Positions 18,184 to 51,278 of a stretch of DNA of 64,000 nucleotides are shown piece after piece. Source of the DNA: a virus; UHGV virus genome UHGV-0311442; one strand, 5' to 3'. The notes beneath the pieces are model-generated. The model had not been told where the DNA came from. It did no database searches and saw only the letters and a program-made list of their open reading frames with translations. The translations under genes were made by a program, and so were the position numbers. Each line of letters opens with the position of its first letter. Position 1 is the stretch's first letter.

Positions 18184-18230
18184 TGTTTTGCTCCTTTATG
18201 GCGTTAATGTATAAAGAGTTAATCGTAACT

Positions 18231-22568: not shown

Positions 22569-23534
22569 ATGGAGAAATCCAGTGTTGATTTTTTCTCAAT
22601 TGGTATCGTCGCGGAAGACAAACCCCGTGGTACAGATCGGGTAAAAGTGATACCAATTGAAACTAACTTTGCTAACCCTACCGTGGTGCAATCTGTTTCT
22701 TCAGCAACTGAAAAGACGCATGAAACGTCTGGTGCAACAGATAACCTAACCATTAAGACGGGTAACACGATAACAGCAAAGTGGTGGAAGTTTAACTCCA
22801 ACCGAATTAATTCCCCTGACGTTAAACGAGAAGACTACGTTATCTTGTTACGTTTGGGGAAAACCGATATTTATTTTTGGATTGATCTGAACTTCGCTAA
22901 CGTTAAGCGATTAGAAGATGCGGTTTATGCGTGGTCGGCTGACCCTGAAAACCAAATGGCGGATGACTTGTCCAATGCGTATGTGTTGAACGTTTCGACG
23001 ATTGACAAACATATCACGCTAAGAACAAGTATGGTGAATGGCGAGAAAGCGGCGTGGTTGTTTCAGTTTGATAATGCAAACGGTACGTGGCAGTGCGTTG
23101 ACCATAAAGGAAACAAGTATTACATTAACTCGGTTGAAGATGATCTCGGGTTTGAGAATGCGATGCTTTCAAAAGTGAACATCAACAAAGAAGATGCGTT
23201 CATTTATTCAAAGCGTTCTATTAACCTGGAAACGAAAACGATTAATGAAAAATGCGAAGTTCGCAATACAGAAGCAGCGAAATCCGTTACGTTTAAAACA
23301 CAAACCTGGTTAACGGAAGCGGGAAGTTCGACAACGTTTAAAACGCCGAACTTTAAACAAGAAGGGAAGGAAGCGATGTTCACCGGTAATTTGGAAATCG
23401 CTAAGAACTTCAAATACGGTGGTACGGGTGAAGGTGTGGGTGTCTTTACGGTTAAAGATGCTGTTATTTCCGGTATTACCTTTAGCGTTCACATTCACCA
23501 AGGTAAACATGGTCCGACATCACCTCCGCAATAA
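22569..23534 (+). CDS. hypothetical protein (321 aa), possibly virion-associated
   Basis: ORF track; AAGGA RBS; plus-strand gene isolated between minus-strand blocks. Confidence 0.5.
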   Translation: MEKSSVDFFSIGIVAEDKPRGTDRVKVIPIETNFANPTVVQSVSSATEKTHETSGATDNLTIKTGNTITAKWWKFNSNRINSPDVKREDYVILLRLGKTDIYFWIDLNFANVKRLEDAVYAWSADPENQMADDLSNAYVLNVSTIDKHITLRTSMVNGEKAAWLFQFDNANGTWQCVDHKGNKYYINSVEDDLGFENAMLSKVNINKEDAFIYSKRSINLETKTINEKCEVRNTEAAKSVTFKTQTWLTEAGSSTTFKTPNFKQEGKEAMFTGNLEIAKNFKYGGTGEGVGVFTVKDAVISGITFSVHIHQGKHGPTSPPQ

Positions 23535-23740
23535 TTCCCCTTTTTCTTACGTTGTTTTTATATATTGTGACCTGACGTTGGTAAAACTTTTTATCAACAC
23601 TTTTCTTAAACCCATCGTTTAGTTAAGCAGGCCACTTTTTTCGCGCACTCTACTCCTCCCTACGGGGAGGAGCTATCTTATGCTTCGGTTGTAACACACG
23701 TCGGTCTTAGACCACCTTCCTTTTGAAATGGAGAGCTGTT

Positions 23741-23950
23741 ATGTCTATTAAAGAGTTCTCTTCTGCTGAGCATATTCCAGAAGAGTTTAAGAAAATCGGT
23801 AACGTTAGCGCCTTCGGCGATACCGTTGATCATGTAACTGGTAAGCTGGCTGCTGAAGCCGAAAAAATTGGCGGCGACGCATTCAAAGTTATCGGTATTT
23901 CCGGCAACAACAAACTGCACGGTAACGCGATTGTCTACAAAAAAGACTAA
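23741..23950 (+). CDS. DUF1471 (BhsA/YhcN-family)-like small protein without signal peptide
   Basis: GDTVDHVTGKLAAEAEKIGGDAFKVIGISGNNKLHGNAIVYK matches the DUF1471 domain pattern; GGAG RBS; flanked by hairpins. Confidence 0.55.
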   Translation: MSIKEFSSAEHIPEEFKKIGNVSAFGDTVDHVTGKLAAEAEKIGGDAFKVIGISGNNKLHGNAIVYKKD

Positions 23951-23952
23951 GC

Positions 23953-24010
23953 GAAAAAAAAACGTGCTACTCCTACCCTCTAAGAGGGTAGGAGGTTACT
24001 TTATTTTTTT
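23953..24010. terminator. bidirectional rho-independent terminator
   Basis: hairpin CTCCTACCCTC-taag-AGGGTAGGAG flanked by A8 and T-run between convergent genes. Confidence 0.6.
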
Positions 24011-25263
24011 CGTGCTCTAAAGCGATGCATTTCTAAATACACTTTTTCCCAGGGACCGAATGGACCAACGATTGCTTGAGCATCGTTAATCTTCTTCTGA
24101 TTATACCACCGGGCTTCACGAAAGACGTAGTTTTGACTGTCGAATTCGGTGGTGTTAAATACCCACTCACCTTCCTCCCACGTAGGCCAATAACCTACCG
24201 TCTTACCAAATCGATTATTTAAGTACCCTAATGGTTTTTCAGAATCAGGATCGTTAGGGTCCTTGAGATAACAACGTCCCCAAACTGCGTTATGGGATAC
24301 ACCCACAACCTCTTCTTCTAAATACGGATTATCTACCGTAAAGATAAAAGAGGATTCGTGGAGTAAAAGTGCCTTTAATGTTTCGGGGTTGCGAATACGT
24401 TGGACATTAGTAGGTGTTGATAAATCCCCCACACCGATGGCGTCCCAGTCGTAATAGCGACGGGTTTCCAGAACGGTCCGTGCAAGATCAAAATTCGGTA
24501 AAGAAATCATGATAGCACGGTCGGAGAAATAACCGCCCGGGGGCAACCAACGTAACATCCCGCCTATGACGAAACCCACGGTTTTTCCCGTAATAGATTC
24601 GGGCAGCGATATCATTAACGTAGAGTAATAGTCGCGTGTAGTGTCGAGCTTGTTTAGGGTAAGGTTGGCAATGGGGTAAGTTTTAACATTCCCTAACTGA
24701 CCAAAAACCATACAACCAATATCTGGCGTACAGGCTCTCCGTACGATTTTACCGGCCCCGGGTAATCGCACACCTACGGTATCCGTCTGGTGTGGTACCC
24801 ACTGACCGTTGATGTTGTAGAGCACACTATTACGGTATTTGTCCTTCCACTTGTCCTCACAAACGACGACAACGTCATCAGCATCGTCTAAGCTGAAATC
24901 TTGACTGTGATGGTACCCCGGCGGACACAGATATGTCTCGACAGGCACATCGGCATTAATTGATTGGTAGTGTGCCCAACTGAATTCCAGTTTCGGCAAT
25001 CCGGCCTTTAGAGTGGGGATGACGTTTCCGGCTTTTTCATTTAACCAATCTTGTAAAGTGTCTGTTCGGTTTTGTAGTTCGGCAAGATGGTATTGACTGA
25101 CTAACGTATAGTCTTTACCAAGTGCACTTAAACCGATCTCAAAGGTGTGGTAGTCTGAACACAACGTATTTAAGGGTTGCGTGACATCGATGGCTCCCCA
25201 GGTACGGGACTCTCGAGAGAAGCCAAAAGCGCTGTCGGGCCGCACTTGATAAGCAGTAGTCAC
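24001..25263 (-). CDS. hypothetical protein (420 aa), GTG start
   Basis: GTG at 25263 with GAGGAA upstream; divergent from tail-fibre operon. Confidence 0.5.
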   Translation of the reverse strand: MTTAYQVRPDSAFGFSRESRTWGAIDVTQPLNTLCSDYHTFEIGLSALGKDYTLVSQYHLAELQNRTDTLQDWLNEKAGNVIPTLKAGLPKLEFSWAHYQSINADVPVETYLCPPGYHHSQDFSLDDADDVVVVCEDKWKDKYRNSVLYNINGQWVPHQTDTVGVRLPGAGKIVRRACTPDIGCMVFGQLGNVKTYPIANLTLNKLDTTRDYYSTLMISLPESITGKTVGFVIGGMLRWLPPGGYFSDRAIMISLPNFDLARTVLETRRYYDWDAIGVGDLSTPTNVQRIRNPETLKALLLHESSFIFTVDNPYLEEEVVGVSHNAVWGRCYLKDPNDPDSEKPLGYLNNRFGKTVGYWPTWEEGEWVFNTTEFDSQNYVFREARWYNQKKINDAQAIVGPFGPWEKVYLEMHRFRARKK

Positions 25264-25331
25264 AGCTCTTTTCCTCTATAGATTCAAGTCATAGTATGAA
25301 CTTCGACGCCCACGGACTATAGGAGTAGAGA

Positions 25332-28300
25332 ATGGCTGTCGTCCTAGACCCACACTTCAAAAAACCGGGGAATAAAATAACCGGTGAAGCGGTCGCCGTC
25401 TTTGGTACGAAATACCGAATGTTGGTACCTGCCCACGCCCCTTTTTTCACCACATCCCTGGTGGTCAAGAGCGGCGGCAAAACACTGACCATAGGCGACG
25501 ATTACGTTATTACGCACCCGTACGAGACCGGTATGTTGCGCACAGCCTATCTCATTCACGGGATGATTTGGATTGTTAATGACAAATACAAATCGAATTT
25601 TACGGTAGATTACCACGCCGTTGGTTGTGGTCAGGCTACCCAACAACAGATTACCGCAGAACGCGAACTCAATAAAGATAAATACCCGTCTGCGTGTCAG
25701 TGGGACACCGTCATCGGGGACGTTTACTTTCCACCGGTCGATATCCAGTTCGATTGGGAGAATTGGAAAGGTGAACTGGAATTAATGCAGGCTATTGCTG
25801 GATTAGGCGATTCGTTAGGGGAAGTCGTGAGTCGGCTTAACCCCATCGCACGCAATACCCTGGATTTAGAATACCGTGCTAATAGCAAGGTTATCACTTC
25901 CGAGCAGTATGCCGTATACGACAATAAAGGTGGCTTCACCTACAACACTGCCCGTCATCGTTATAGCTTGAGTTATAAAACTGCAACCTTTAACGACTAC
26001 GCCCTGTCAGTGAAACACAGAATTCCTGCTATTCTGCCAGACATGACGAAATTGAATCCAAACGAACAGATCGATTGGATGCTCTGTTATGCTAACGGCG
26101 GTGCAAGTATTCTACGGCTGCAGCTAAAACAGCGCAAAATCTCACTGGTCTTAACGGTCGCTATTGGTAGCGGTTCAACAAACTACGATTATACGTTAAT
26201 CAACGGCTTAACTGACGATGAGTTAAAAAACGATATCGATTTTAGTGTAACCCGACAACCCGGAAACGGTGTTTACGTCATCGTAGTAAAAACAAATAAA
26301 CAGACCATGGATTACACATTCAATGTCGATACGCCGCCTGATGAGTTCTCGGCAGGGTATTCGAAAACGGATGTTGCTAAATGGTTGAAGTTTAAAACGA
26401 ACATTAATTTAAACTGGTATGCGGCCGAAAACGATTATATTCAAATTCGTTCTTTACCCGGCGCACCAGAACCTGACATCGATAACGATGTTTACCAGTT
26501 AATAGTCAAATACCATCAGTTAGTTGAGCAGCTGTATCGTAACGCGCCTGCACACGAACACGTTACACGTAAGGACAACCCGCACACCGATACGTGGGGT
26601 CCGATCCGTGCGTTAGAGCTGAATGGTATTGCGACAGATGCCGCGTTAGCTTACGGGAAGACGAAACAGCAGTTAACGGATTATGTTAATGCTAAGTACC
26701 CAACACAAGCAACGTTAACCGCACAGAAAAAACTGCTTCGTGAATCGCCGAGCAAGAACGTTAACGGCACGATTACCACACTTCCGGGTTTTACTTCGTT
26801 CACGACGGAAGTTGATCCGGTCTCGATGTCGAAATACGTGAGTCCTTATTTTAGCGAAAGCTATGTTAGTAGTGGTCACAGATATCACGGCGCGCTTCGT
26901 TATACAGGAGCGAAAAGCGGTTTCAGTGCTAACTTTAATGCAGTGCCTGCCAACCTGCAAGATATTGACTTTATTGTTACTGGACGTAAAACAGCGTCTG
27001 GTAATGAAGCGGTCGGTAGGGTTGGTTTACGTTTCTACGAAAATCCTGGTAGTAACTCCGGTAAGTACGTAGAGATTACCGGTGAAGTCTGGTCCGGTAC
27101 TCTTACTATCGAACTGGCGTTGCACGGTTACGGTAGTCCGGTACCGGCAGTTCGGTATATTTCACAAGCTCCTAACCCGGCAATACCGGATGGGGATTTT
27201 ACGCTACGTTTTCAACTGAAGCGTACAGGGAATGTGTTTGACGTCGTTATTACCGTAAACAGTAAAACGTATAGCGGTAGGATTAACTTCAATAACATGG
27301 ACGCTGCGTTAGAAGCATTAGAGAATCAGCACCACTTTAAATCGCTGATCAATAATGTTGCCGACGCCGTTACCATTAGTTCGCAAAACAAAGGTAACAC
27401 GGTTACCATTAAGAAAGCACCGGATGTTGTTGACGAGACACGTTTAGGTGCCCAGTTTGTTGTTGATCCGAAATCCATCAAGTTTATTGGCCAAGGTTCA
27501 ACTGATGTTAACGTGGCTAACAACCCCGTAACGTTCCAAGCAGGTACTAACCAGCTTGTGCTATACCCCGATGACCGAGGATTGTTGTGGCGTGGTAAAA
27601 AACTCTTAGACCCCACCACCGTAGCCCCGTATCTGCCAGGCAATACCGCAGGTGGCACAGGTTTATTCTACGCAAGTTCGACAACAACGGTTACGATCAC
27701 CGGTAGCGGGATAAAAGCCTCGCCGTTCGTAGCGACCTTTATTCTTCCTACCGCGACCGATACAACAGCTCTGGCAGCTTGGCAGTTGACCGATGAGTTC
27801 GGTACCGCTGAAAACCTTGCAGCAACGCCAGCACTGATTGAAAAACTCGATGCGGAGTTCACCGGTAAGTTAGTTGCAGTTAAATCGTACATTAACGACA
27901 TGCAACTTACCAGCTCGGTTACTATCGATAAGATTACCTTTGGTTTAGGTAACGTTGCGAATACGCCTGATGTCGATTTACCGATTTCTACAGCACAACG
28001 TGCGGAGTTAGATAAATACTCGCCTAAAGTTCACCAACACCCGTTTACCGCTTTTGGTACAGGGAACGCAACCACAGCGCAACGTGGTCTGATTAAATTT
28101 GGTCTGGATGTGGATGATGCGACTTTAGCACTCGATGGGAGTGTGGTAATGGCGCAGACTTCCCAGATTGAAAAATTGGAGCGCGCTGTCAGCGGTGTTG
28201 ACTCGGAGGCACGTCTTGACATTATACGTTTTGGTGAGTCTGGTAACGACTTAATAGACGTTACGGTCAAAGACAAAATTCTGGTCACGCTTCCAGCTTC

Positions 28301-29654
28301 AACGTATTTTATCGGTGGTGAAACATACGACGTTCCGTTGATGACGATTAACGTCAGTGAACGTTTTCCGAAATTGAATACAGAAATCTACGCAGGGATT
28401 TTTGTTGATATTGTTGACAACAAAGCGAAGTATATTGTCCACGACAGCTACAGTCAGGCTGAAACGGATACCATGACGCGTGTAGGGTTGATTGGTGTTA
28501 ACGACATTTCTGAGGTGTTCGTTACGGAGATGCGTAATGTCACACGGTTGGGCGATTTCCGTGAACTGAAAGATCATAAAGCCGATGACAACGCACACAT
28601 TCAACGCTCCGCGTCACGTGCAGCGCTTGGGTTAGCTAACTTAACCGTAGGTGCGCCTTGCTGGGCTTCTGGACTCCAGGCAGTAGTACGCGGTGAAGCA
28701 GATTGGCGTTATGTTGTCGATGGGCAGTATAAAGCCTTAGACGGGGTGAAATACGACCAGCTCGCATCCAAGTGGATTTTTGACGCGAAAGGGGTAAGCG
28801 ATAACCTGCACGGGTTTATCCACAGCATGTTCCCAGCTTTTAAGAACGCAGGAATGCGGGTAAGTTGGGAAACAGAAAGTAACGCAAAAACCGGTACGGT
28901 GCTAGAAACTGTTTTAGGATGCTGGAAAAACACCGACGGCGAGTTTATGCGGTTGTCGTTACTTATCACTCGTGGTTATCGTTTAACTGACAGCAACGGT
29001 GAATATTGTTACGCAGGGTTCGGTTTGAACTTCGGTAGCGGGAAATCGGTAGTGTTAGGTTTCACACCAACGAAGCGTGTTACGCCTGCACCGTGGAATA
29101 CGTTACAACCTGACGTAACGTTTACCCACACCCGTGCTGCAAATAACGCAATAACGTTTAACGCAACATTGACCTTAGCGGGCACTACGTATACCATCGT
29201 GGTGTTTTTATCTGCGACTGATAAATACGTAAGTTGCACGGCAGCAGGGGGAGCTACGCAGAAAATCCCTCTAACTGACCGTTTAACTGGGTTCAATATC
29301 GCACCTATCGTTAACGATCCGTATACCCCTATTTACTACGGTTTAGGGGGACTTTATGAGGATGAAGTTCGTGCCAACATCCGTTCTACGGCAGATAGCG
29401 CAACCGCGAATAAAGTCTATGGTACGTTGTTAGACTATATTAGCAACTATTCCTCATTAAATCGTGTGCGCGTTATGGAATTGACCGGTGTCAGTTCAGA
29501 CCCCGAAACGCTTAATGCGTTAGTGGCAACTGAATTTAATAACAACCTGGCGGATTACGCTGCGTTACCGATACCTCCTTATCTTAACAAGGAGCGCGTA
29601 ATGTCGTTTATCGACACCAACAATAAAGTGCAGGCGGTAATCATTCGCGATTAA
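25332..29654 (+). CDS. tail fibre protein (1440 aa)
   Basis: AGGAG RBS; tail-fibre-type repeat motifs (GNVANTPDVDLPISTAQRAEL; GNATTAQRGLIKFG); N-terminal PFF module shared with the next three genes. Confidence 0.65.
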   Translation: MAVVLDPHFKKPGNKITGEAVAVFGTKYRMLVPAHAPFFTTSLVVKSGGKTLTIGDDYVITHPYETGMLRTAYLIHGMIWIVNDKYKSNFTVDYHAVGCGQATQQQITAERELNKDKYPSACQWDTVIGDVYFPPVDIQFDWENWKGELELMQAIAGLGDSLGEVVSRLNPIARNTLDLEYRANSKVITSEQYAVYDNKGGFTYNTARHRYSLSYKTATFNDYALSVKHRIPAILPDMTKLNPNEQIDWMLCYANGGASILRLQLKQRKISLVLTVAIGSGSTNYDYTLINGLTDDELKNDIDFSVTRQPGNGVYVIVVKTNKQTMDYTFNVDTPPDEFSAGYSKTDVAKWLKFKTNINLNWYAAENDYIQIRSLPGAPEPDIDNDVYQLIVKYHQLVEQLYRNAPAHEHVTRKDNPHTDTWGPIRALELNGIATDAALAYGKTKQQLTDYVNAKYPTQATLTAQKKLLRESPSKNVNGTITTLPGFTSFTTEVDPVSMSKYVSPYFSESYVSSGHRYHGALRYTGAKSGFSANFNAVPANLQDIDFIVTGRKTASGNEAVGRVGLRFYENPGSNSGKYVEITGEVWSGTLTIELALHGYGSPVPAVRYISQAPNPAIPDGDFTLRFQLKRTGNVFDVVITVNSKTYSGRINFNNMDAALEALENQHHFKSLINNVADAVTISSQNKGNTVTIKKAPDVVDETRLGAQFVVDPKSIKFIGQGSTDVNVANNPVTFQAGTNQLVLYPDDRGLLWRGKKLLDPTTVAPYLPGNTAGGTGLFYASSTTTVTITGSGIKASPFVATFILPTATDTTALAAWQLTDEFGTAENLAATPALIEKLDAEFTGKLVAVKSYINDMQLTSSVTIDKITFGLGNVANTPDVDLPISTAQRAELDKYSPKVHQHPFTAFGTGNATTAQRGLIKFGLDVDDATLALDGSVVMAQTSQIEKLERAVSGVDSEARLDIIRFGESGNDLIDVTVKDKILVTLPASTYFIGGETYDVPLMTINVSERFPKLNTEIYAGIFVDIVDNKAKYIVHDSYSQAETDTMTRVGLIGVNDISEVFVTEMRNVTRLGDFRELKDHKADDNAHIQRSASRAALGLANLTVGAPCWASGLQAVVRGEADWRYVVDGQYKALDGVKYDQLASKWIFDAKGVSDNLHGFIHSMFPAFKNAGMRVSWETESNAKTGTVLETVLGCWKNTDGEFMRLSLLITRGYRLTDSNGEYCYAGFGLNFGSGKSVVLGFTPTKRVTPAPWNTLQPDVTFTHTRAANNAITFNATLTLAGTTYTIVVFLSATDKYVSCTAAGGATQKIPLTDRLTGFNIAPIVNDPYTPIYYGLGGLYEDEVRANIRSTADSATANKVYGTLLDYISNYSSLNRVRVMELTGVSSDPETLNALVATEFNNNLADYAALPIPPYLNKERVMSFIDTNNKVQAVIIRD

Positions 29655-29667
29655 GGAGATTTTTTTG

Positions 29668-32600
29668 ATGAAAGCGTATCCTTACGATCCTCGGGGGACG
29701 AAAGCCGAGAATCACTTCTTAGAGGAGCGTATCATCGGGTCAGAAAATAACAACGATCGGGTGGTGATTTTAGACCATCGCCCGTTCTTTGAAGATTTAG
29801 TCGTCAGACAACCAGGTTCAACCACCCCACTGAGTCGTGGGGTGGACTACGAACTGCAATATCAGCTGACGGAACTGGATGACTCGGTAGCAGCCAACGT
29901 GTATTGTGGGGTACACCTTATCAACCCATCCATCAAAGGCATCGTAACCTTTGAAGGGCAAATGCTCGGCGGTACGTTCTACGACCCGTTTGTTGATATT
30001 CTCGATGAACTGGTGAAATATTTGAATAACCCAGTCAGTGCTGACTGGCTGTTATTAGACGGTAGACCATCGTTATATCCAGCGACGCCAGCAGCAACGT
30101 CCTGGGCGGATTTGCTGAACAAAAAATATTTAGCGTCGGCAGTTCACGATATTGAATTGAAAACCGACGACGCTAACCAGCTAATTAAAGACAAATTAGC
30201 TGAAGTTAAAGCGTTAGTGACTGCGTTGGGTAAAGAAATCGAAGCATTTAACTACCCGGCACATATCGCAGCGAAGAACCCGCACGAAACCACATCCGCG
30301 CAGATTAACGCGCATCCTGTTAACTTGAAAACACCCGACACCTTTATGGCGTACGGGTTAAAGTTGAAAGCACTGACGGATGAGCTGAAAGCGTTTCGTT
30401 TACCGCAGTCGGTTATCGATACGTATATCTCTCACTGGATTTCTTCGGAAGTGCGGGGCGTGTTTAACTGTACGGTGTCAGGAAACCGCGCACAGTTCCG
30501 TTCGAAAAACGGTGAGTCCGAAATCATTTTTGCCAACGATGGTTTTACGTTAAAATCCAACGGTTCTGTGGTGTTAGCGGTAGGGCATCTGGAAGGCACA
30601 GGTGCAGGACGCTATATCAACTGGCGTGCCGGTAAAAACACATTACGCATCGAGTCAACAGGCGATGCTTTAGGGATGAACAAACTCACCCTGAACGGTA
30701 ACCCGTTACTGACTACCACGGCGTTGATGGAATACCAACAAGATCCAGATGCGGGTTCTGGTGGCGGTGGCGACCCTGATGACTCGAAGGTGTACATTGA
30801 AGGTCGTAATGGGATTAGCTTTACCGGTAAAGGTTCTCGCGCCGACCCTATCGTGGGGACTATCGACCCAACAAAAGCGACAACCGCCGAAAAAGGCGTC
30901 GCTAAACTTAAAACAGGTAAAGGTACAGAAACGACTGGGGTTGCTGCAACACCGGCTTCGTTAGCACCATACTCGACCGACCTATCGGGGTATGTGGCTA
31001 AAACGACCATGATTAACGGTAAGCCGATGAACGACGGCTCCAGGACAATCACGAAAGCTGATCTGGGGTTAGGGCGAGCGGATAACACCGCAGACGTTGA
31101 CAAGCCGTTGTCTACCGAGTTAAATACGGCGCTTAGTGGTTTAGCGGATGCAGGTCACCACCACGATTGGTCGGAACTAGGCATTTATAAAGCCTCGCAA
31201 ACCGTTTACGGTATCGGTCGTTACGCAACTAACCAGAACGGTTTGGTTGAAAACCGTGCAGTGGTGCCGAACGTCTTAAAAGAACTTTCGGCGCGTTTAG
31301 ATGTGGTCGCCGCGGCGATTGCAAACGCGAAAGAAGGGTCGGTAACAGATTTCGCTGCGGTAAAAGGCGCAGACTGGCGCTTTAATAGCCAGGGTACGGC
31401 AATCTCCGTTCAAGATTTGAAATATTTCTATTTGCTGAACGGTGCGAAAGCTGATAGCGCCGTTACAGGTTCGATTGACCTGCAAACTACGCCGATGTTT
31501 AACTGGTTCTCACCGAACAACCAAATTGAGACGACCTGGCCTACGGGGAAAGTGAGTGCTGGTAAGGGCATTAGCTGGACAGGTATTGAAGAACCACCAC
31601 TAATGGGTTTCCAATCTGTTCCGGTAGGTAAAACTGCCTCACAGATGGGCGACCAGTCAGTTGTTACTGTGTTGGCCAAAACGCGGGTAAGAGCACGCCA
31701 GCCGAAGCTTTGGGTTTATGCCGCTGGAGGTGGCCCGGTTACAGTTTACATTAACGGTATCCAGGCAGCCACAGGCCAGTCTCCGCTCGTTGCAGTGTAC
31801 GAAACATCAGCGGACGTTGAAAACTACACCGTAGCGGTTAAAGCTGAGTGTAGCGACACGGCTAAATCCGCAGCGGTGCAATTCGAAATTTACGACGGTG
31901 ACTACCCCGTTTATTTCAGTGGCCCTGAAACGCACGTAGAGCTTCTCCAAGAGTTTGTTACAACACACGTAGGCATTCGTCATTATCTGTACGTTAACAT
32001 GCTCACAGGCTCTCTGTATTCGCGTACTGAGCCAATTCAGAGTATTGCAGTTGACCCTGAGCGCGGTTATATCGGCTACGTTGATATTGTTGCCGGTGAA
32101 TCTTACTCGAATAAAACCGTGAGTTTTGAAACCACGTTTGATTTCGGGAAAAGTACCGAGGTTAGTGAGCACATCGACGCTCGTAAAGCACACGGACTCA
32201 GTTCTGTAGACTGGACGTTAACGGATAACCCACGGTTGCCGTTATTAAATCGTGCGATTGCTGAACCGAGAACGTGTATTTTTAGAAAAGCGTTAACGGC
32301 CGGTACTGGTGATGTTTTTCATCTGGTAAGTCGTGGTCTTTATACCTACGCACACAACCAAAACGTGAAGTCCAGTCTTCAATACGTTGTGATACCTGAG
32401 GGTGCTACACCGTATTGCTGGTTTACACCGTTTAACCCGAAAGAAAACAACGCGCCGACGTTCGAAGGTTCGTTTGCGTTCGACGTTGACGATGTCGGTG
32501 GAACACAAGCACTCACGGCTGCACCGGATTTGGTGCTGTGTACGTCAACACAAGGTAGCAGCGTTAAACGTCGTTACGTACGTATTGACCTAACTGCCAA

Positions 32601-33849
32601 AGCGTGTAAGCTGGGGATTGGTTCTCGTTCAGATTCTGCTGTTACGGATATCCCGTTAGTGATGGAGGAATCTGGGGAAACGGCGGTGGTGGCAACGTTT
32701 AAGGATGTGTTGTTCAACGGCGAGGAAACCAACGCAGCGATACTCGACTTGATAGGCTGGGGTCCAAATAAAGACAAAATCTCTGCAAACCATGCGCCAC
32801 GTGGTATGATTCGTTATCGTTACAACGTAAACACTCGGGTATTACGTTTAGCACTCTCATTCTCACAGTTCGGAACGACAACAGTTAAGCAACGTCAGTT
32901 GGAAATTCAATTCCCGTTTGATTTAGTGGATTACTTCACCGGTGACGGTGTAGGGTTGTCGTTTAAAGAACTGTCTGCGAAATGCCGTGTAACGATTAGC
33001 CACGCACTGATTGATCCGGTCACGACTAAAATCGATATTGATAAGTACCATTACTTACGCTCGTTATTTGAGTCGTATTTGGACGCATCTGTTGGTTATT
33101 TGGCTGATACCAAAGACGTCGACTTTAGTCAGTCTGTGATTGACCCAGCGACTTATGAGATTAGTCAGAAATACCGCGTTACCGAAAGCATTGCGCTGCC
33201 GACCGGCCAGGGAAGTGTTGCTGTTTCCCATGACGGCCAGTTACCTGCGCAGTTCTTTGACCGTAAGCTTTCTCGTGGTGCTTTGATGGCCAAGAAAGGT
33301 GAACTTCATGCCTCCTGGAACAATGAGTGGAGTACATCCAAAGCTGCCGCAAACCGGTATCGGCATAAACTCATTCTACGCTTTGCGCAAGGTGCTGATA
33401 AACAGCAGTACCGTGTTGCAAAAGTGGCAGGAACGGTGAAGTGTAACTGGCCGGGTAAGGTGATTATCGGCGATGCTGGGAAGGACGCGTATGTATCAGC
33501 TATTGATAGCGTGCCGTTTGCGCTTTCGACCAGCGCGGACACAGGTAAAGCAGTTACCCTTACGCCAAAGGATCTACGTGTAGGGCAGGATATTTATATT
33601 GTCTTAGAACCACCGGGTAATAATCCTGAAGGCTACGAGCTTAACTTTACCTGTTCGTTAGATGTCACTGACGAGAACGGTGTTCGTCAAGACCAACTCA
33701 ATGCGCAGAGCTTCGAACTCCGTAGCGGCGAAAGTCAATTCTTAATGGAGAAACGCAATCCGTACCACATCACGAGTAAAGCGTGGAAGTGGATTTTGGC
33801 TGTACTGAAACGAGAACTTAACGGGAAGCAGTTAGGGAATCGTACTTAG
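29668..33849 (+). CDS. tail fibre protein (1393 aa)
   Basis: AAGGAGA RBS; classical fibre motifs KATTAEKGVAKLKTGKGTETTGVAATPASL and ADLGLGRADNTADVDKPLSTELNTALSG. Confidence 0.7.
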   Translation: MKAYPYDPRGTKAENHFLEERIIGSENNNDRVVILDHRPFFEDLVVRQPGSTTPLSRGVDYELQYQLTELDDSVAANVYCGVHLINPSIKGIVTFEGQMLGGTFYDPFVDILDELVKYLNNPVSADWLLLDGRPSLYPATPAATSWADLLNKKYLASAVHDIELKTDDANQLIKDKLAEVKALVTALGKEIEAFNYPAHIAAKNPHETTSAQINAHPVNLKTPDTFMAYGLKLKALTDELKAFRLPQSVIDTYISHWISSEVRGVFNCTVSGNRAQFRSKNGESEIIFANDGFTLKSNGSVVLAVGHLEGTGAGRYINWRAGKNTLRIESTGDALGMNKLTLNGNPLLTTTALMEYQQDPDAGSGGGGDPDDSKVYIEGRNGISFTGKGSRADPIVGTIDPTKATTAEKGVAKLKTGKGTETTGVAATPASLAPYSTDLSGYVAKTTMINGKPMNDGSRTITKADLGLGRADNTADVDKPLSTELNTALSGLADAGHHHDWSELGIYKASQTVYGIGRYATNQNGLVENRAVVPNVLKELSARLDVVAAAIANAKEGSVTDFAAVKGADWRFNSQGTAISVQDLKYFYLLNGAKADSAVTGSIDLQTTPMFNWFSPNNQIETTWPTGKVSAGKGISWTGIEEPPLMGFQSVPVGKTASQMGDQSVVTVLAKTRVRARQPKLWVYAAGGGPVTVYINGIQAATGQSPLVAVYETSADVENYTVAVKAECSDTAKSAAVQFEIYDGDYPVYFSGPETHVELLQEFVTTHVGIRHYLYVNMLTGSLYSRTEPIQSIAVDPERGYIGYVDIVAGESYSNKTVSFETTFDFGKSTEVSEHIDARKAHGLSSVDWTLTDNPRLPLLNRAIAEPRTCIFRKALTAGTGDVFHLVSRGLYTYAHNQNVKSSLQYVVIPEGATPYCWFTPFNPKENNAPTFEGSFAFDVDDVGGTQALTAAPDLVLCTSTQGSSVKRRYVRIDLTAKACKLGIGSRSDSAVTDIPLVMEESGETAVVATFKDVLFNGEETNAAILDLIGWGPNKDKISANHAPRGMIRYRYNVNTRVLRLALSFSQFGTTTVKQRQLEIQFPFDLVDYFTGDGVGLSFKELSAKCRVTISHALIDPVTTKIDIDKYHYLRSLFESYLDASVGYLADTKDVDFSQSVIDPATYEISQKYRVTESIALPTGQGSVAVSHDGQLPAQFFDRKLSRGALMAKKGELHASWNNEWSTSKAAANRYRHKLILRFAQGADKQQYRVAKVAGTVKCNWPGKVIIGDAGKDAYVSAIDSVPFALSTSADTGKAVTLTPKDLRVGQDIYIVLEPPGNNPEGYELNFTCSLDVTDENGVRQDQLNAQSFELRSGESQFLMEKRNPYHITSKAWKWILAVLKRELNGKQLGNRT

Positions 33850-33943: not shown

Positions 33944-36900
33944 ATGCCGAGAGAAGACGCGGCGCAGTTTAACGGTACGCTAAGCACAGCGACGTACCCT
34001 AACCGATTTAACGTGGTCATTCCGCCTGAAGGACCTTTTTATCGTATCGGATTAAAACTCACAGTAGCCGACGATACCGCGCCTAACGGACGTCGTACTC
34101 TGATTGAGGGGTTGGACTACTATTTAGGCTATTACTTTAAAGAACTCGCAGAAGCTGAGCAAGATCAGATTTACGGCGGGTTCATGTTGCTGACCGCAAC
34201 AGAAATCGAATATGAGATTTTAGGGGTAGCACGCCAGTATCGTGTACCACAATCTGAAATCGGAAAGTTCTTAGTTCGTACTGACCTGAAAGACCCACGT
34301 AACGTGGACTGGTCAGAGTTAATGGCGTATGCGCCAGTTATTCAACCCATCGATCCTCCTGCTAACTTAGAAGAAGCTATTCTGAGGGATGAGGTTGTTA
34401 AAGCGTTAAACGATATCCGTAAGAAAATCGTTCAACGTTCAACAGAGTTAGATGCAGCGTTTACCGAAGTCACTAACCTGATTTACGAGAACGGTAAAAA
34501 GGTTTTCGACGAGGAGTTATACCAACACCACCTTAATCCTAACGCACACCAGTATACGACCACTGATGTTGGTGCCCTTCCGGTTTTGGGACGTGCTGTC
34601 GACGCTACAAAAGCGTTTGGACTGACGATTGACGAATTGGCTACGCTGATGGGTTCGGCGGGTATTGAGCAATCAGACGTTGATCAGTTAATGGGTGAAG
34701 CCCTTGGTACCGTTTACGGTCGTTGGGGTAGCACAAACGGTAACGAGCTGACGTTTAAAACCGCAGGCGGACACATCATCAGTATCCGTGGTGATAAGTG
34801 GTTAATTACCTCACCGCAACCGTTGGTGATTAAAGCAGACCAGGACAACAACGAATCGGGTTTGGCGGTTGAATTTAGTGCGGGACTGAATACGCTTTGG
34901 GTGCACTCTGGGACAGAACAGGATGTATTAGCGCCGGTTTACAACTCTGTGTATTTGGTTACACCAGAAATGGTGAACATGTACCTGACGTCTGTAACGT
35001 TACTTGAAGCAAATGCCTATTTCAAACCATCAGACAGCGTAAAACCATACGGTACAGCGAAGCAGTCTAATCCGCTAACGTTGAACGCGAATATTCCCAC
35101 AGCAACCGAGTCGGTTTATGGGGTGTTTTCGATTACGAATATCGCAACCTCCGTAGCACTAGGCACTGCTATTTCCCAAAAGGCGGTGACCGAATTAAAA
35201 GACCGGTTAGACTTGTACGTTGACGATGACTACACGGTTAACGGTAAAGGGTTTGTTAAGACAGGCGATAAAATGGTGTTAACCTTAACGAAAACCGATT
35301 TCGGTATCGATAAGATGGATAACACCATGCCGATCGCTAAACCGGTAACAAAAGCGTTAGCGAATGTGCTGAAAAATAAAAGTGTGAAGGAGCACACGCA
35401 CACTACCGCCGATTTGGATAATGTCCCGATTGGTAGTGCGACTGTAGATGGTATTTTACAGTTGTGGGATGCGATTGATGCCACGAATGATAAAGCCGTC
35501 ACGTCTCGTCAAGGGTGGTTGTTCGCAAAAGAGATCAAGAAGGTTTCCGATAAACTGAATACCATCTTACCTGCGTGGACTGTCGGTGGGGCGAAGTTCG
35601 GTAACAAAAACTTCTTACCCATTCCGGCACTCGGTAATTATTCAGGTTTTACAAAGAACCAGTCCTATCAGAAAGGCGTTGTAGGATATCAACAAGGTAA
35701 AGTTTATTCGTTACGTAATGCTTCTAATGGTGTACCTGGTACAGAGGCTATTTATTACGGTTATGCTGATATCAATACGTCGAATGCATTTGAGAACCCT
35801 CAGCAAACTTCGGTGAAATACCATCCTGCTGGGATGAGTAAATATCCTGGAGTGACCTTAAAAGCTATTTTGATCGGTGGTCAGGAAGCGATTATTTGTC
35901 TGGGTTCTGACAATAACCGTTATCTGGTCTTGTTCAATGGCTCGATGGACCACAGTAAGCACACAGTGGTGTGCCGTGTTACAATGCCGAATTATCGCGA
36001 TAATAGTCCCACTGGTTCAAACGAGATTCCGTGGAATCCTCGGCCAGAATCTGACGATGTTGTTCTGGTTGACGACCACGTTTACCTTCTTCGCTCCACG
36101 GTAAATAACGCTGCTTATGCCGTGGCGGCATGGCGTTTACGTAAAGCCGATTTGTCTACTAATGTTGCGTTAGAATTTGAACGTGTAACGTTAAATGGTG
36201 AAATGGGACAATTCGGAGATAACCTCTGCCTAAGAATTGGCCAGAAGACCGAAGAGTCGCAGACTGGTCAATTCTTCACGTATTACCCACCCGAGGCACG
36301 GGCTAAATGGACAATCGGTCACAACTTTGTCCATGGTCCAGAATGTAACCATGCTTGTGCGGTGCGTGACAGTGTGATTCGTGTGAATCATGTACCCACT
36401 GTGTGGTTTGCGGCTGCCGACGGTTCGACGATTAATTTCCGTCAATGGTCAACAAGTTTCACAATCGATACGTTAACGGGTAGAGTTACGTTGGAGGGTG
36501 CCGAACGTTTCCCCATTAAGGCTGATACTACCACACTGACGTTCGCGGATGGTTCAACTGTAGAAACCAGTCGTAAGTGGGGCGGTGGTCAAGCAAACAA
36601 TCGTTGTTTTGCAACGTATGCTAAACCTAACGGCACCGGAATGATGCTTTCCTGTTGGCAGGTTAACGATGCGGACCAGATGCCGAATGTTTCTATTAAA
36701 GGAACGCAAGGCAAAGAGTTTTTCGATTATTTGCGTTACGATAACCCGAACAATACCTCAGGCGAAGGAACGTTTACTTGGGATAAAGGCCGTGGTTCTA
36801 TCTATACCATCGGTCTTTCTCATCCTGTCGGTATCGGTGGTTCGAATAAGGTTTGGCTATCCAATCCACGCAACCGTTATACGATCGAAGTAGAAGTTGA

Positions 36901-39127
36901 CCCAAGTAAACCTTATGACGTTCCTGGATATAGCGGTTATGGCCCGAACAACAACCGTCGAGAAGTTGATGCAACCCTTTACGAACAGTTAAGCTGTATG
37001 GCTGCTTGCATGACTCCAGAGGAGCGTCACGGCCAGTTAAACGGTTGGTATTTGACGAAAGCGGAAACCTTCCCATATCGAAACATCTACGGTAACTTTG
37101 CCCTGTCATCAGAACGGCTGACGTTAGAGGAAGCGGATCGCCAGAAGATGATTAGGATGATTGTCGATGGTGCACCATCTGGTCAGGCAAACGGTTACGC
37201 GAACGAGCGCATCAGCGCAGCACACCAAAGCGGTAACGCGTTGTTTGCGCTCTGGTTGCTAGGCATTAACACTGTTTGTGAGTTCGACTTATTACAAGTC
37301 TCATGCATGAAAATCTTGAGTAACGGACGTCGAGTTCTCGACATCTATTATTTCATGGTGAGTCCGACTAAAGAAAACGGTTATCTACGTTTTAACTCGG
37401 CTACTTTCAAACTCGTTGATTGGTTCTTAGACCTTGATTACGGCTTAAGTTATCAGTCTCTGAGGGAAGAAGCGGGTAATAAAACGCGACGTGTAGGCCA
37501 GCCAATTTTTGCTTCTGCCGACGGTGTAAACTTCGGTCTATGGCTACCTTATACGCTGACAATACGGAATATCGGGGACCTAAATGCTTTGGGTTACGCT
37601 GCGAAGTATACCTTCGACCCTGGGTCGGGTTGGACTCGCGTTCCCGGTAAGTCACAATTGCGTCGGATGGCCCCTGCTCATAATCCCGAAACAGGCTGCT
37701 ACATGGGTGCGGGTAATTGGGACAAGATGGCACTAATTTTCTCTAAAGCAGATCGTGTCTTCTGTTCAGGTAACGCATATACAGCCGAAGAGTTCGTTAA
37801 TGACACCAGATTCACAACTGGGGGACAGGCGGTTATTATCGCTGGTGTGGAAACTGCCGAAGGTTGGATTCTATATTTGACGGAAGAGGTCAGGTTAGAT
37901 TTCGGTAGTAATAGCTATACATTACCGACGTGGTTGGTGGATTTAAGCAATGAATTCCCAGAAAACCATGCTAACCAGACGTTCTATGTTCATGCTGCTC
38001 TTGTAGGTTCGAAAGCTCAATATCAGATCGGTCTGGAAAAGCTGCCGGATACGAGTTCGCGATTATTTGTTGGTACAGTTACAACCGATAAAAAGCGCAT
38101 AGTTGCTATTAACATCGATAAAGTGAAACGGTTAGGCAGGGTTCGTGAATTAGAAGAACACGCTGCTGTTAGAGATCAGCACGACGTTGCAGCGGCGTAC
38201 GATCGAAAAACGGGTCCACTCCAAACCTTGGTTAACCAACCGCTGAAAGCCCCCACGGCATCTGCGGGCAAGGGTGCAGGGTATGCCGATGGTCAGAGAT
38301 GGAATGCGTTGACCGGGATCACAACACGTCCCAAACTGCCGATACAGGAAACCTACGCAGGTTATAAAAGTATCGGTAGAGTAGCGTATGAGAACTGCGC
38401 TGATCAGTTCTGGCAGAAAGCGGTCGCTGCAAACGTTGCAGCGGCTACTGCGTCTGAGAACAGTCAAGCGGCAGCCGCGAACATGAAGTGGTTGGGCGCG
38501 TATACGAAACCGACTACAGGTGCGAATGCATATCTGGCGCTGAGTCTGCGTGTTAAAGTGCCTGGTAATCCCGGCACCGCTAATCGTAGACTAAAAATCA
38601 GGCTTGCGGCTCCGACAGGTATAACCCAAGTTCGTTACGGGTTAAACCAGTCTGGTGGCACGATGACTGAACAGACAGTAACGTTAACTGCTAACAGTTA
38701 TCTGGAAAAAGAACACGCCGGATTTAAGCCAGCCGAAGAAGTCCGTGTACATGCTACGTTTGTCATTCCAAAAAATGAATACGATAGCTACCGTACGAAG
38801 TTCGGTGCTGTTCAGCTGATTGACGTTGAGTCGAACACTGTCATTAAACAGACAGATATCGACACACCGTTTATCGTGTATACCGACACGGAGTTAGCAG
38901 CGCAATCTGGTTTGGTGTATAAAGCGGTTAAGGGTCAGTTCCATCAACTCCCGTCTCAACCTGTCGTCATTGTAACTGATGGACAGACAGGGACTACGCC
39001 ACCGGTGAAAACCTCGTTTGCTGACGGGACATTAACGGTCTACGTGGCAACCACGTACGATGCGGTTAACCCAGCACAAACCCGCGATATCGATAAGCTC
39101 CAGTTCAATCTTATGTTTACATCTTAA
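33944..39127 (+). CDS. tail fibre / receptor-binding protein (1727 aa)
   Basis: shares N-terminal GPFY...DYxLxY module; largest ORF of the operon. Confidence 0.6.
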   Translation: MPREDAAQFNGTLSTATYPNRFNVVIPPEGPFYRIGLKLTVADDTAPNGRRTLIEGLDYYLGYYFKELAEAEQDQIYGGFMLLTATEIEYEILGVARQYRVPQSEIGKFLVRTDLKDPRNVDWSELMAYAPVIQPIDPPANLEEAILRDEVVKALNDIRKKIVQRSTELDAAFTEVTNLIYENGKKVFDEELYQHHLNPNAHQYTTTDVGALPVLGRAVDATKAFGLTIDELATLMGSAGIEQSDVDQLMGEALGTVYGRWGSTNGNELTFKTAGGHIISIRGDKWLITSPQPLVIKADQDNNESGLAVEFSAGLNTLWVHSGTEQDVLAPVYNSVYLVTPEMVNMYLTSVTLLEANAYFKPSDSVKPYGTAKQSNPLTLNANIPTATESVYGVFSITNIATSVALGTAISQKAVTELKDRLDLYVDDDYTVNGKGFVKTGDKMVLTLTKTDFGIDKMDNTMPIAKPVTKALANVLKNKSVKEHTHTTADLDNVPIGSATVDGILQLWDAIDATNDKAVTSRQGWLFAKEIKKVSDKLNTILPAWTVGGAKFGNKNFLPIPALGNYSGFTKNQSYQKGVVGYQQGKVYSLRNASNGVPGTEAIYYGYADINTSNAFENPQQTSVKYHPAGMSKYPGVTLKAILIGGQEAIICLGSDNNRYLVLFNGSMDHSKHTVVCRVTMPNYRDNSPTGSNEIPWNPRPESDDVVLVDDHVYLLRSTVNNAAYAVAAWRLRKADLSTNVALEFERVTLNGEMGQFGDNLCLRIGQKTEESQTGQFFTYYPPEARAKWTIGHNFVHGPECNHACAVRDSVIRVNHVPTVWFAAADGSTINFRQWSTSFTIDTLTGRVTLEGAERFPIKADTTTLTFADGSTVETSRKWGGGQANNRCFATYAKPNGTGMMLSCWQVNDADQMPNVSIKGTQGKEFFDYLRYDNPNNTSGEGTFTWDKGRGSIYTIGLSHPVGIGGSNKVWLSNPRNRYTIEVEVDPSKPYDVPGYSGYGPNNNRREVDATLYEQLSCMAACMTPEERHGQLNGWYLTKAETFPYRNIYGNFALSSERLTLEEADRQKMIRMIVDGAPSGQANGYANERISAAHQSGNALFALWLLGINTVCEFDLLQVSCMKILSNGRRVLDIYYFMVSPTKENGYLRFNSATFKLVDWFLDLDYGLSYQSLREEAGNKTRRVGQPIFASADGVNFGLWLPYTLTIRNIGDLNALGYAAKYTFDPGSGWTRVPGKSQLRRMAPAHNPETGCYMGAGNWDKMALIFSKADRVFCSGNAYTAEEFVNDTRFTTGGQAVIIAGVETAEGWILYLTEEVRLDFGSNSYTLPTWLVDLSNEFPENHANQTFYVHAALVGSKAQYQIGLEKLPDTSSRLFVGTVTTDKKRIVAINIDKVKRLGRVRELEEHAAVRDQHDVAAAYDRKTGPLQTLVNQPLKAPTASAGKGAGYADGQRWNALTGITTRPKLPIQETYAGYKSIGRVAYENCADQFWQKAVAANVAAATASENSQAAAANMKWLGAYTKPTTGANAYLALSLRVKVPGNPGTANRRLKIRLAAPTGITQVRYGLNQSGGTMTEQTVTLTANSYLEKEHAGFKPAEEVRVHATFVIPKNEYDSYRTKFGAVQLIDVESNTVIKQTDIDTPFIVYTDTELAAQSGLVYKAVKGQFHQLPSQPVVIVTDGQTGTTPPVKTSFADGTLTVYVATTYDAVNPAQTRDIDKLQFNLMFTS

Positions 39128-40367: not shown

Positions 40368-40376
40368 CTTTATTAC

Positions 40377-40423
40377 AGGAGGAACTATGCTTATGGGCGT
40401 AGTCCTCCATTCTTTTTTATTTT
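40377..40423 (+). terminator. rho-independent terminator (likely partial)
   Basis: stem AGGAGG...CCTCC followed by ATTCTTTTTTATTTT. Confidence 0.5.
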
Positions 40424-40434
40424 AAGGATACGTG

Positions 40435-47109: not shown

Positions 47110-47248
47110 TGTTTTACCTCGTAAGTAGTATGGGTGGTTTGCATAGTATTGTTCGGATTATAGAAGTGTTGTTAATAGTTATGACAGACAGCAGTAAGGG
47201 TTGTCTGTAAAATTATTATTTTTTAACTTTTTATAGAAGGGTGAAAAC

Positions 47249-51112: not shown

Positions 51113-51234
51113 CGCGTTAACTCACAATAAGTAAAAAGGTTTAAGAGGTCGTTTTACATCCCTCAGCCAGCATAGGAATAGTCGAGTAGAGGGTAAGCAA
51201 AGTAGTGTCGAAATAACAAAAAAGAAAAGGGAAA

Positions 51235-51271
51235 GAAAATTAATTCCGCTATAGACCGAAGCCTATAGCGG
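51235..51271 (-). terminator. possible terminator hairpin
   Basis: CCGCTATAG-accgaagc-CTATAGCGG downstream of 51279..51710. Confidence 0.35.
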
Positions 51272-51278
51272 AGAGAGG

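Follow-up and report, generated by a model that had tools for sequence, protein, structure and literature searches.

The virus genome UHGV-0311442 was analysed over a stretch of 64,000 nucleotides (nt; hereafter the window), which is DNA of an SPN3US-like jumbo phage whose closest match among cultured phages is only ~73% identical. One gene of the window, at positions 23741 to 23950 on the plus strand, encodes a protein of 69 amino acids (aa) that is, by its sequence and predicted fold, a member of the DUF1471 family devoid of the family's universal export feature. Sequence comparison makes this gene a clear member of the SPN3US gp172/PHROG 8068 family, and it lies next to the gene for the central tail spike. 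Our tentative reading is that the product would be a late, abundant protein of the cytoplasm which gets to the bacterial envelope by a phage route instead of the Sec pathway, most likely by associating loosely with the tail or the spike region; its function is putative. The gene starts with the ATG at 23741, ends with the TAA at 23948-23950, and its product reads MSIKEFSSAEHIPEEFKKIGNVSAFGDTVDHVTGKLAAEAEKIGGDAFKVIGISGNNKLHGNAIVYKKD. The features that define it are as follows:

23741-23950, plus strand: coding sequence of 69 aa, a single leaderless DUF1471 (BhsA-like) domain, orthologue of SPN3US gp172 (open reading frame, Pfam, PHROG, AlphaFold2 model, ratio of nonsynonymous to synonymous substitution rates or dN/dS).
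23730-23733, plus strand: Shine-Dalgarno sequence GGAG, 7 nt 5' of the ATG (sequence).

An earlier note on this DNA, made from the letters alone, had assigned the product to DUF1471, and a search with hidden Markov models returned a significant match. Pfam PF07338 (DUF1471, YdgH/BhsA/McbA-like) scored 38.2 bits against a gathering cut-off of 27 (E-value 1.4e-9), with an alignment spanning profile positions 2-55 of 55. The NCBIfam models for BhsA, YbiJ, YahO, McbA and YhcN aligned from about position 30 on, that is, with their mature part. All of them scored far under their equivalog cut-offs; the best was the BhsA model (NF047859), with 46.8 bits for a cut-off of 90 and positions 30-85 of 85 aligned. 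Because of this score we rejected the name BhsA for the window protein. The match to PHROG 8068, a family annotated as of unknown function, was end to end (E-value 4.5e-32, residues 1-69 against profile positions 1-70 of 70), and the positions conserved in the DUF1471 family (G20, L36, A40, G44, G55, N57, G61, A63 and Y66) are retained.

The predicted fold agrees with this assignment. An AlphaFold2 model built from an alignment of 61 sequences (mean pLDDT 87.4) showed a beta-beta-alpha-beta-beta arrangement, with strands at residues 4-6, 16-26, 47-54 and 59-68 and a helix at 29-42. The top Foldseek matches in the PDB were the C-terminal and N-terminal domains of YdgH (4evu and 2m2j, respectively), followed by SrfN (2ma8 and 2jna), YahO (2noc) and RcsF (2y1b); a PDB search with the sequence of the window protein led to YahO (2ma4, 2noc). 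The enterobacterial DUF1471 proteins (BhsA/YcfR, YbiJ, McbA, YahO, YhcN, SrfN and the domains of YdgH) share the domain of the window protein, and its predicted fold superposes on the solved structures of YdgH, SrfN and YahO. The best global superposition of the model was with RcsF (2y1b, TM-score of 0.85 normalised to the query), but the two proteins are only 12% identical, the window protein has neither a lipobox nor the disulfide cysteines of RcsF, and it is not a member of that family. A resemblance of the DUF1471 fold to the outer-membrane sensor RcsF has been described, together with the binding of sulfated polysaccharides by SrfN (PMC4092069).

What sets the window protein apart from its bacterial relatives is the absence of a leader, as the earlier note had also stated. 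Neither a Sec, a Tat nor a lipoprotein signal was found in the 69-aa product, nor is there room for one: the maximal in-frame open reading frame starts at TTG 23723 and is only 75 aa long, and therefore no signal peptide can be encoded upstream. The same situation was observed in 12 related phages, where the in-frame stretch upstream of the orthologue's start ranges from 0 to 36 codons; 11 of the 12 stretches are short and non-hydrophobic, the one in Machina (36 codons) is hydrophobic but devoid of Met, and none of the 12 offers a usable extension. A GGAG or GAGG motif stands at the same spacing from the start codon in all 12 relatives. We measured the maximal Kyte-Doolittle hydropathy in a 10-residue window over the first 30 residues, and it did not exceed 1.3 in any phage-type sequence, compared with ~2 or more in full-length bacterial homologues, which carry classical MK...A-x-A leaders. 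The leaderless state is kept in the 12 relatives and in four metagenome clusters, and the N-terminal Sec signal peptide common to all characterised PF07338 members is missing from the window protein and the 12 relatives alike. Every characterised enterobacterial DUF1471 protein is exported, whereas the window protein is leaderless, phage-encoded, located in a tail module and preceded by a phage-type candidate promoter.

Pairwise dN/dS values of 0.03-0.13, calculated only for pairs with unsaturated synonymous sites, indicate purifying selection and hence a functional protein-coding gene; with the domain match in the same plus-strand frame, they rule out a chance open reading frame. An open reading frame of 80 aa with a GTG start runs antisense to the gene (23678-23920, minus strand) and is most likely spurious, since both the selection and the domain match sit in the plus frame.

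We then looked at the distribution of the gene. By tblastn the protein was found in 60 phage records, 55 of which cover at least 80% of the query, and all 60 are phages of 220-250 kb that infect Erwinia, Salmonella, E. coli, Cronobacter or Proteus, which fits the enterobacterial host proposed for the window in the earlier note. The window protein is 72-80% identical to the SPAsTU/STsAS, Erskinevirus and ChrisDB forms and only ~45% identical to SPN3US gp172 (SPN3US_0172, YP_009153466, PHROG 8068), which is likewise a leaderless DUF1471 protein of 69 aa. The latter gene has the same neighbours (spike gp173 upstream and convergent gp171 downstream) and the same layout of Shine-Dalgarno sequence and terminator. 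The gene order is also the same throughout the Seoul-, Machina-, Erskine-, Wellington- and Derbicusvirus genera: a gene annotated as "baseplate assembly protein" (plus strand), the DUF1471 gene (plus strand), a convergent gene for a virion protein of ~420 aa (minus strand) and large fibre-like proteins (plus strand). Metagenome contigs of 222-228 kb show an order identical to that of the window. The index of a public assembly collection lists the identical 69-aa protein in 876 blocks, and near-complete contigs of ~225 kb carry it (ENA ERZ28566275, ERZ17808125 and ERZ28648651; NCBI GCA_948296085.1); from this recurrence we conclude that the uncultured jumbo phage is widespread. In the two Wellingtonvirus phages Wellington and pEa_SNUABM_11 a second leaderless DUF1471 gene stands in tandem (L006 4287-4847; L013 1805-2371), and its product of 186-188 aa starts with a DUF1471 domain and continues into a tail of ~120 aa that is acidic and of low complexity.

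When 1.84 billion cluster representatives were searched exhaustively with a profile, only 91 matches were obtained. The four best of these are leaderless phage-type proteins of 68-78 aa; the others, of 80-90 aa, are bacterial and carry leaders. The named bacterial relatives, most of which bear the name BhsA, all come from Enterobacterales (Serratia, Xenorhabdus, Yersinia, Pantoea, Erwinia etc.) with the exception of one from Martelella alba (P0209), and this makes the host-derived origin put forward in the earlier note plausible. The closest bacterial protein (P0012) is ~46% identical over the domain and gives the best score against the BhsA model. Such a distance, together with synteny across five genera, points to an old capture and not to a recent moron. 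As to the features by which morons are recognised, the terminators around the gene are clear and its promoter is deduced from an invariant TATGC only (see below), and the gene appears fixed across five genera, unlike typical morons.

In a phylogeny relative to the host homologues, a neighbour-joining tree built on 58 alignable columns did not resolve phage monophyly (34 of 500 bootstraps), a point against a single capture. Given this outcome, the case for one ancient event is made by the position and the loss of the leader that the phages have in common. Outside the enterobacterial phages, the nearest relative found was Vibrio phage pVa-21, whose gp171-like protein is 27% identical; it has an empty gap of 318 bp in place of the gene.

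The gene lies in the tail-spike module. The genes on either side of it are:

22569-23534, plus strand: central cell-puncturing tail spike of 321 aa, with a phiKZ gp164-like body and a Mu gp45-type HxH apex (PHROG 3216, phmmer search of the PDB).
24001-25263, minus strand: convergent tail/baseplate protein of 420 aa, homologue of SPN3US gp171 and phiKZ gp130 (PHROG 3337; PDB 9xqd PHIKZ130, E-value 9e-9).

The product of the upstream gene matched phiKZ gp164 (6orj, 9xph) with an E-value of 2.3e-21, and its residues 267-320 matched the apex of Mu gp45 (3vtn, 3vto, 9ki1; VHIHQGKHG as compared with KHIHRGDSG). These matches identify the gene called "baseplate assembly protein" in the relatives as that of the central cell-puncturing spike, with an apex of the Mu gp45/P2 gpV type; its SPN3US counterpart, gp173, is classed among the tail proteins. 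Downstream, SPN3US gp171 is an essential tail protein (PMC5105663), and phiKZ gp130 links the lobes of the baseplate star, with fibres attached beneath it (PMC13250141). Beyond the convergent gene, three very large open reading frames follow one another on the plus strand (25332-29654, 1440 aa; 29665-33849, 1394 aa; 33944-39127, 1727 aa); the first two have PHROG families in common and are the counterparts of the SPN3US paralogues gp170 and gp169 (phiKZ gp131-like fibre/baseplate proteins), and the last is presumably the gp168 counterpart.

According to the structural atlas of phiKZ, a monomeric tip, gp163.1, sits on the spike gp164 (PMC13250141). In the Phikzvirus SL2 an 88-aa gene located 10 nt downstream of the spike gene encodes a protein 100% identical to PHIKZ163.1, and this protein carries the PAAR motif (PF05488, 28.7 bits). 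Judging by gene order, the DUF1471 gene fills the very slot (spike on the plus strand, small gene on the plus strand, convergent gene on the minus strand) that is the home of the PAAR tip in phiKZ-type phages. The likeness to gp163.1, a small protein encoded directly 3' of the spike gene in the same orientation and followed by a convergent gene, is restricted to genomic position: gp163.1 is a PAAR protein, whereas the window protein has no PAAR motif (no PAAR match at E-values up to 1) and its predicted fold is that of DUF1471, which is unrelated. The spacing also differs, since the window gene lies 206 nt from the spike gene, with terminator-like hairpins and a promoter-like motif in between, compared with the 10 nt of SL2. 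In the Salmonella and Erwinia jumbo phages we could detect no homologue of the gp163.1 type, and the SPN3US-type spike, to judge from the match to Mu gp45, supplies an HxH apex of its own.

The non-coding DNA on both sides of the gene contains the following elements:

23547-23642, plus strand: conserved non-coding block that separates the spike stop codon from the hairpin (TTAC-N15-TGTGAC ... GCCACTTTTTTC).
23653-23672, plus strand: GC-rich terminator-like hairpin between the spike gene and the candidate DUF1471 promoter (-18.1 kcal/mol, z -2.6).
23679-23683, plus strand: TATGC, candidate promoter or start site for a phage RNA polymerase (phiKZ middle/late type), ~60 nt 5' of the ATG (conservation).
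23954-24009, both strands: bidirectional intrinsic terminator that also serves the convergent 420-aa gene (A-run, stem of 11 bp at 23970-23994, T-run).

The stand-alone gene between hairpins described in the earlier note was thus recovered, with the hairpin at 23653-23672 upstream and the stem at 23970-23994 downstream. The relatives show an equivalent upstream hairpin followed by a T-run. The downstream terminator (z of -5.7 on the plus and -6.5 on the minus strand) is kept as a bidirectional element in 10 of the 12 relatives; in the other two, both Wellingtonvirus, the second DUF1471 gene comes after a plus-strand hairpin. Just 3' of the upstream hairpin, the motif TATGC is invariant across an alignment of the upstream regions (200-270 nt) of eight phages whose flanks have otherwise diverged; TTTAC stands 15-16 nt upstream of it in the relatives, and CCTAC in the window. 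The late promoter consensus of phiKZ is TATG, with the G as +1, and its middle promoters contain AAanTTACc near -24, sometimes with TATG too (PMC4666361). From the conservation and from this analogy we infer a candidate promoter at TATGC. No sigma-70-like promoter was found upstream of the gene. The terminators on both sides, the TATGC and the strong Shine-Dalgarno sequence go part of the way to establishing that the DUF1471 gene is a separate transcription unit. As a general signal, the bipartite motif TTAC-N15/16-TATG (or TGTG) was discarded, since its 3 and 4 matches in the window, respectively, stay below the 4.9 and 5.4 expected. TATG-containing motifs also occur 5' of several structural genes, for example within 25264-25331, 40368-40431, 47110-47248 and 51113-51278. 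Another motif, TCAGATATAT(A/T)TTACTTA(G/A)G, is found in intergenic DNA upstream of minus-strand genes near 18230, 22530, 54690 and 58590, in three copies just past a terminator hairpin; it resembles the phiKZ-type early promoter, TATATTAC.

The block at 23547-23642 occurs once in the window. Across four genera, and despite saturated synonymous sites in the neighbouring genes, its elements are retained: (A/T)TTAC-N15-T(G/A)TGAC, AACCC..TCG(C/T)TTG and an invariant G(C/T)CACTTTTTTC. The block is missing from Derbicusvirus and from Vibrio phage pVa-21. As a structured RNA it gave neither an Rfam match nor an RNAalifold consensus, and the stems that abut its U-run were individually no better than those of shuffled sequences. 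Possible roles are those of an additional terminator, a small RNA or a regulatory leader.

Published proteomic data on SPN3US gp172 allowed us to ask where the orthologous protein is found. In virions purified on a caesium chloride (CsCl) step gradient, gp172 (7 kDa) was the smallest virion protein, identified by 4 unique peptides and 6 spectra with 81% coverage; it was not detected in the mutant 47(am1), and the authors caution that the low-mass region of the gel may not always have been analysed (Ali et al. 2017, PMC5694885). Its peptide-spectrum matches (PSM) per kDa, 0.86, are similar to those of bona fide tail proteins (PMC5694885, PMC7411985 Table S2). In CsCl-step preparations, 6 PSM were recorded for the wild type and 3 for am59-supD (Reilly et al. 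2020, PMC7411985 Table S2), and the ratio to the major capsid protein was similar in the second of these preparations (PMC7411985 Table S2). No gp172 was seen in the tailless mutant on which the authors based their assignment of proteins to head or tail (PMC7411985), and this is the sole ground for its label "Tail". The SPN3US authors also remarked on an "Unusually high abundance in cell". This remark, like the loose co-purification with particles, agrees with the suggestion of the earlier note that the product would stay cytoplasmic.

Other parts of the same record, and some further points, weigh against an envelope role reached through the particle. gp172 gave 0 PSM in tailed particles purified by the CsCl step followed by buoyant-density gradients, although the neighbouring gp171 and gp173 were readily detected there, 2 PSM in tailless heads full of DNA, and its maximum, 13 PSM, in the crude pellet of a differential centrifugation (PMC7411985 Table S2). 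It was also at 0 PSM in four other preparations of am59 or am66 sup0, namely one CsCl-step band and three prohead or tail preparations taken through both the step and the buoyant-density gradients; in the latter three, gp171 reached 23-39 PSM and gp173 3-27 PSM (PMC7411985 Table S2). In the triplicate virion tables of 2023, gp167 to gp171 and gp173 are listed as Tail and gp172 does not appear. Such a pattern also fits an abundant soluble contaminant. In addition, a separate strong promoter and a high abundance exceed the needs of a spike-bound protein present in 1-3 copies, and a binding partner is known for no DUF1471 protein (PMC11705850). The published data therefore conflict on the virion status of gp172, which is present after the CsCl step and absent from the gradient-purified particles and the 2023 triplicates; it is expressed, abundant and at most loosely associated with the particle.

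Why then do we favour, with reserve, an abundant cytoplasmic protein that ends up at the envelope? The DUF1471 proteins of the bacteria themselves work in the periplasm or the outer membrane, where they influence outer-membrane properties and the susceptibility to detergents and beta-lactams, and YdgH needs its leader to function (PMC11705850). That all characterised members work in the envelope and that leaderless YdgH is inactive are two of the grounds for this choice; the others are that the gene is embedded in the host-contact machinery and that gp172 is reproducibly found in CsCl-step virions. The scenario would be as follows. An ancestor of the SPN3US-like jumbo phages (Seoul-, Machina-, Erskine-, Wellington- and Derbicusvirus) most likely captured the gene once from an enterobacterial host, and it would have become fixed directly 3' of the central tail-spike gene. 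With the leader lost, and the loss conserved, the protein must, we infer, accumulate in the cytoplasm, which is also the site of virion assembly. Its likeliest way out would be to attach loosely to progeny particles at their tail, baseplate or spike region, so that the envelope of the next host would be met from the outside; a release upon cell lysis is the alternative route. Once at the envelope, the protein would attach to some outer-membrane or periplasmic component, as is thought for its host relatives, and might thereby aid adsorption or penetration. Accumulation in the cytoplasm is compatible with three uses: loading onto particles, release at the envelope during lysis, and a new role in the cytoplasm itself.

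The last of these uses would be purely intracellular and non-structural: the protein could help to assemble the spike, baseplate or fibres as a chaperone, or it could be a small factor binding a ligand or a protein. We regard this as rather unlikely, though as the most probable of the rivals. The virion signal would then be mere carry-over, in line with the abundance in the cell, with a PSM peak in the crude pellet and none in the most stringently purified particles and tails, and with the absence of gp172 from the 2023 tables; the cousins of the fold (YbjQ/DUF74, dodecin, selenium-binding protein) are cytoplasmic oligomeric binders of ligands, and a place among tail genes is a frequent site of phage chaperone genes. 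Carry-over accounts poorly, however, for a ratio to the major capsid protein that is reproducible in two independent CsCl-step preparations, one of them with 81% coverage; moreover, no DUF1471 protein is known to function in the cytoplasm, YdgH is inactive without its leader, and chaperones are seldom among the most abundant proteins. Release at lysis seems improbable to us. The protein would build up in the cytoplasm as an endolysin does and reach the periplasm or outer membrane once the holin opens the inner membrane, there to disrupt the outer membrane or to coat debris and receptors against the loss of progeny by re-adsorption. A periplasm-type domain without a leader, a late-type candidate promoter, the high abundance and the known effects of host DUF1471 proteins on outer-membrane properties and on detergent and beta-lactam susceptibility would all suit such a factor, but its gene stands in the spike/tail module away from any recognisable lysis gene and a role of DUF1471 in lysis is without precedent.

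A stoichiometric component of the spike, either a functional replacement of the PAAR tip or a cargo delivered to the periplasm at puncture, looks less probable still, and we hold the specific idea that the leaderless protein is a cargo or accessory on the tail tip, injected into the host periplasm during penetration, to be just as doubtful. Effectors of type VI secretion systems encoded downstream of vgrG offer a parallel for spike cargo. The gene occupies the exact slot of gp163.1 in phiKZ and SL2, no PAAR protein of that type is detectable in the Salmonella and Erwinia jumbo phages, gp172 was labelled "Tail" by the SPN3US authors, and a periplasmic-type domain without leader is what a delivered cargo would be expected to look like. 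Against this, PAAR motif and fold are both absent, the Mu gp45-type HxH apex makes the SPN3US-type spike self-sufficient, terminators separate the gene from that of the spike and it has its own candidate promoter, the abundance is far above the 1-3 copies required, and purified tail preparations contained 0 PSM of gp172 for 26-27 of spike gp173. Finally, some GenBank names imply a stress-resistance moron that benefits the host by acting like bacterial BhsA. BhsA is indeed the best NCBIfam model and the nearest bacterial homologues are BhsA-like, but the score of 46.8 bits is about half the equivalog cut-off of 90, the place where BhsA works is out of reach without a signal peptide, the relatives are strictly lytic jumbo phages, and the candidate promoter is of the late phage type with no sigma-70-like promoter beside it; we consider this explanation very improbable and disfavour it.

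Part of this annotation is already public, so that the window gene adds one more member to a family whose domain was recognised: RefSeq names the SPN3US orthologue "DUF1471 domain-containing protein", and several records of Erwinia phages read "putative multiple stress resistance protein BhsA". In the literature searched we found no discussion of a phage DUF1471 protein, nor of its conserved leaderless state, its context in the spike/PAAR slot, its independent late-type unit or its scattered proteomic pattern. The present analysis corrects the misleading name "multiple stress resistance protein BhsA", and it identifies the upstream "baseplate assembly protein" as the spike. The DUF1471 proteins of the enterobacterial envelope are abundant and induced by stress, and to our knowledge a molecular function has been established for none of them. 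A leaderless copy that has long been kept beside a membrane-puncturing spike, and whose orthologue is made in bulk, may offer an independent handle on what the DUF1471 domain binds. It also bears on how the SPN3US-like jumbo phages, which include candidates for therapy and biocontrol against Salmonella and Erwinia, handle the enterobacterial envelope.

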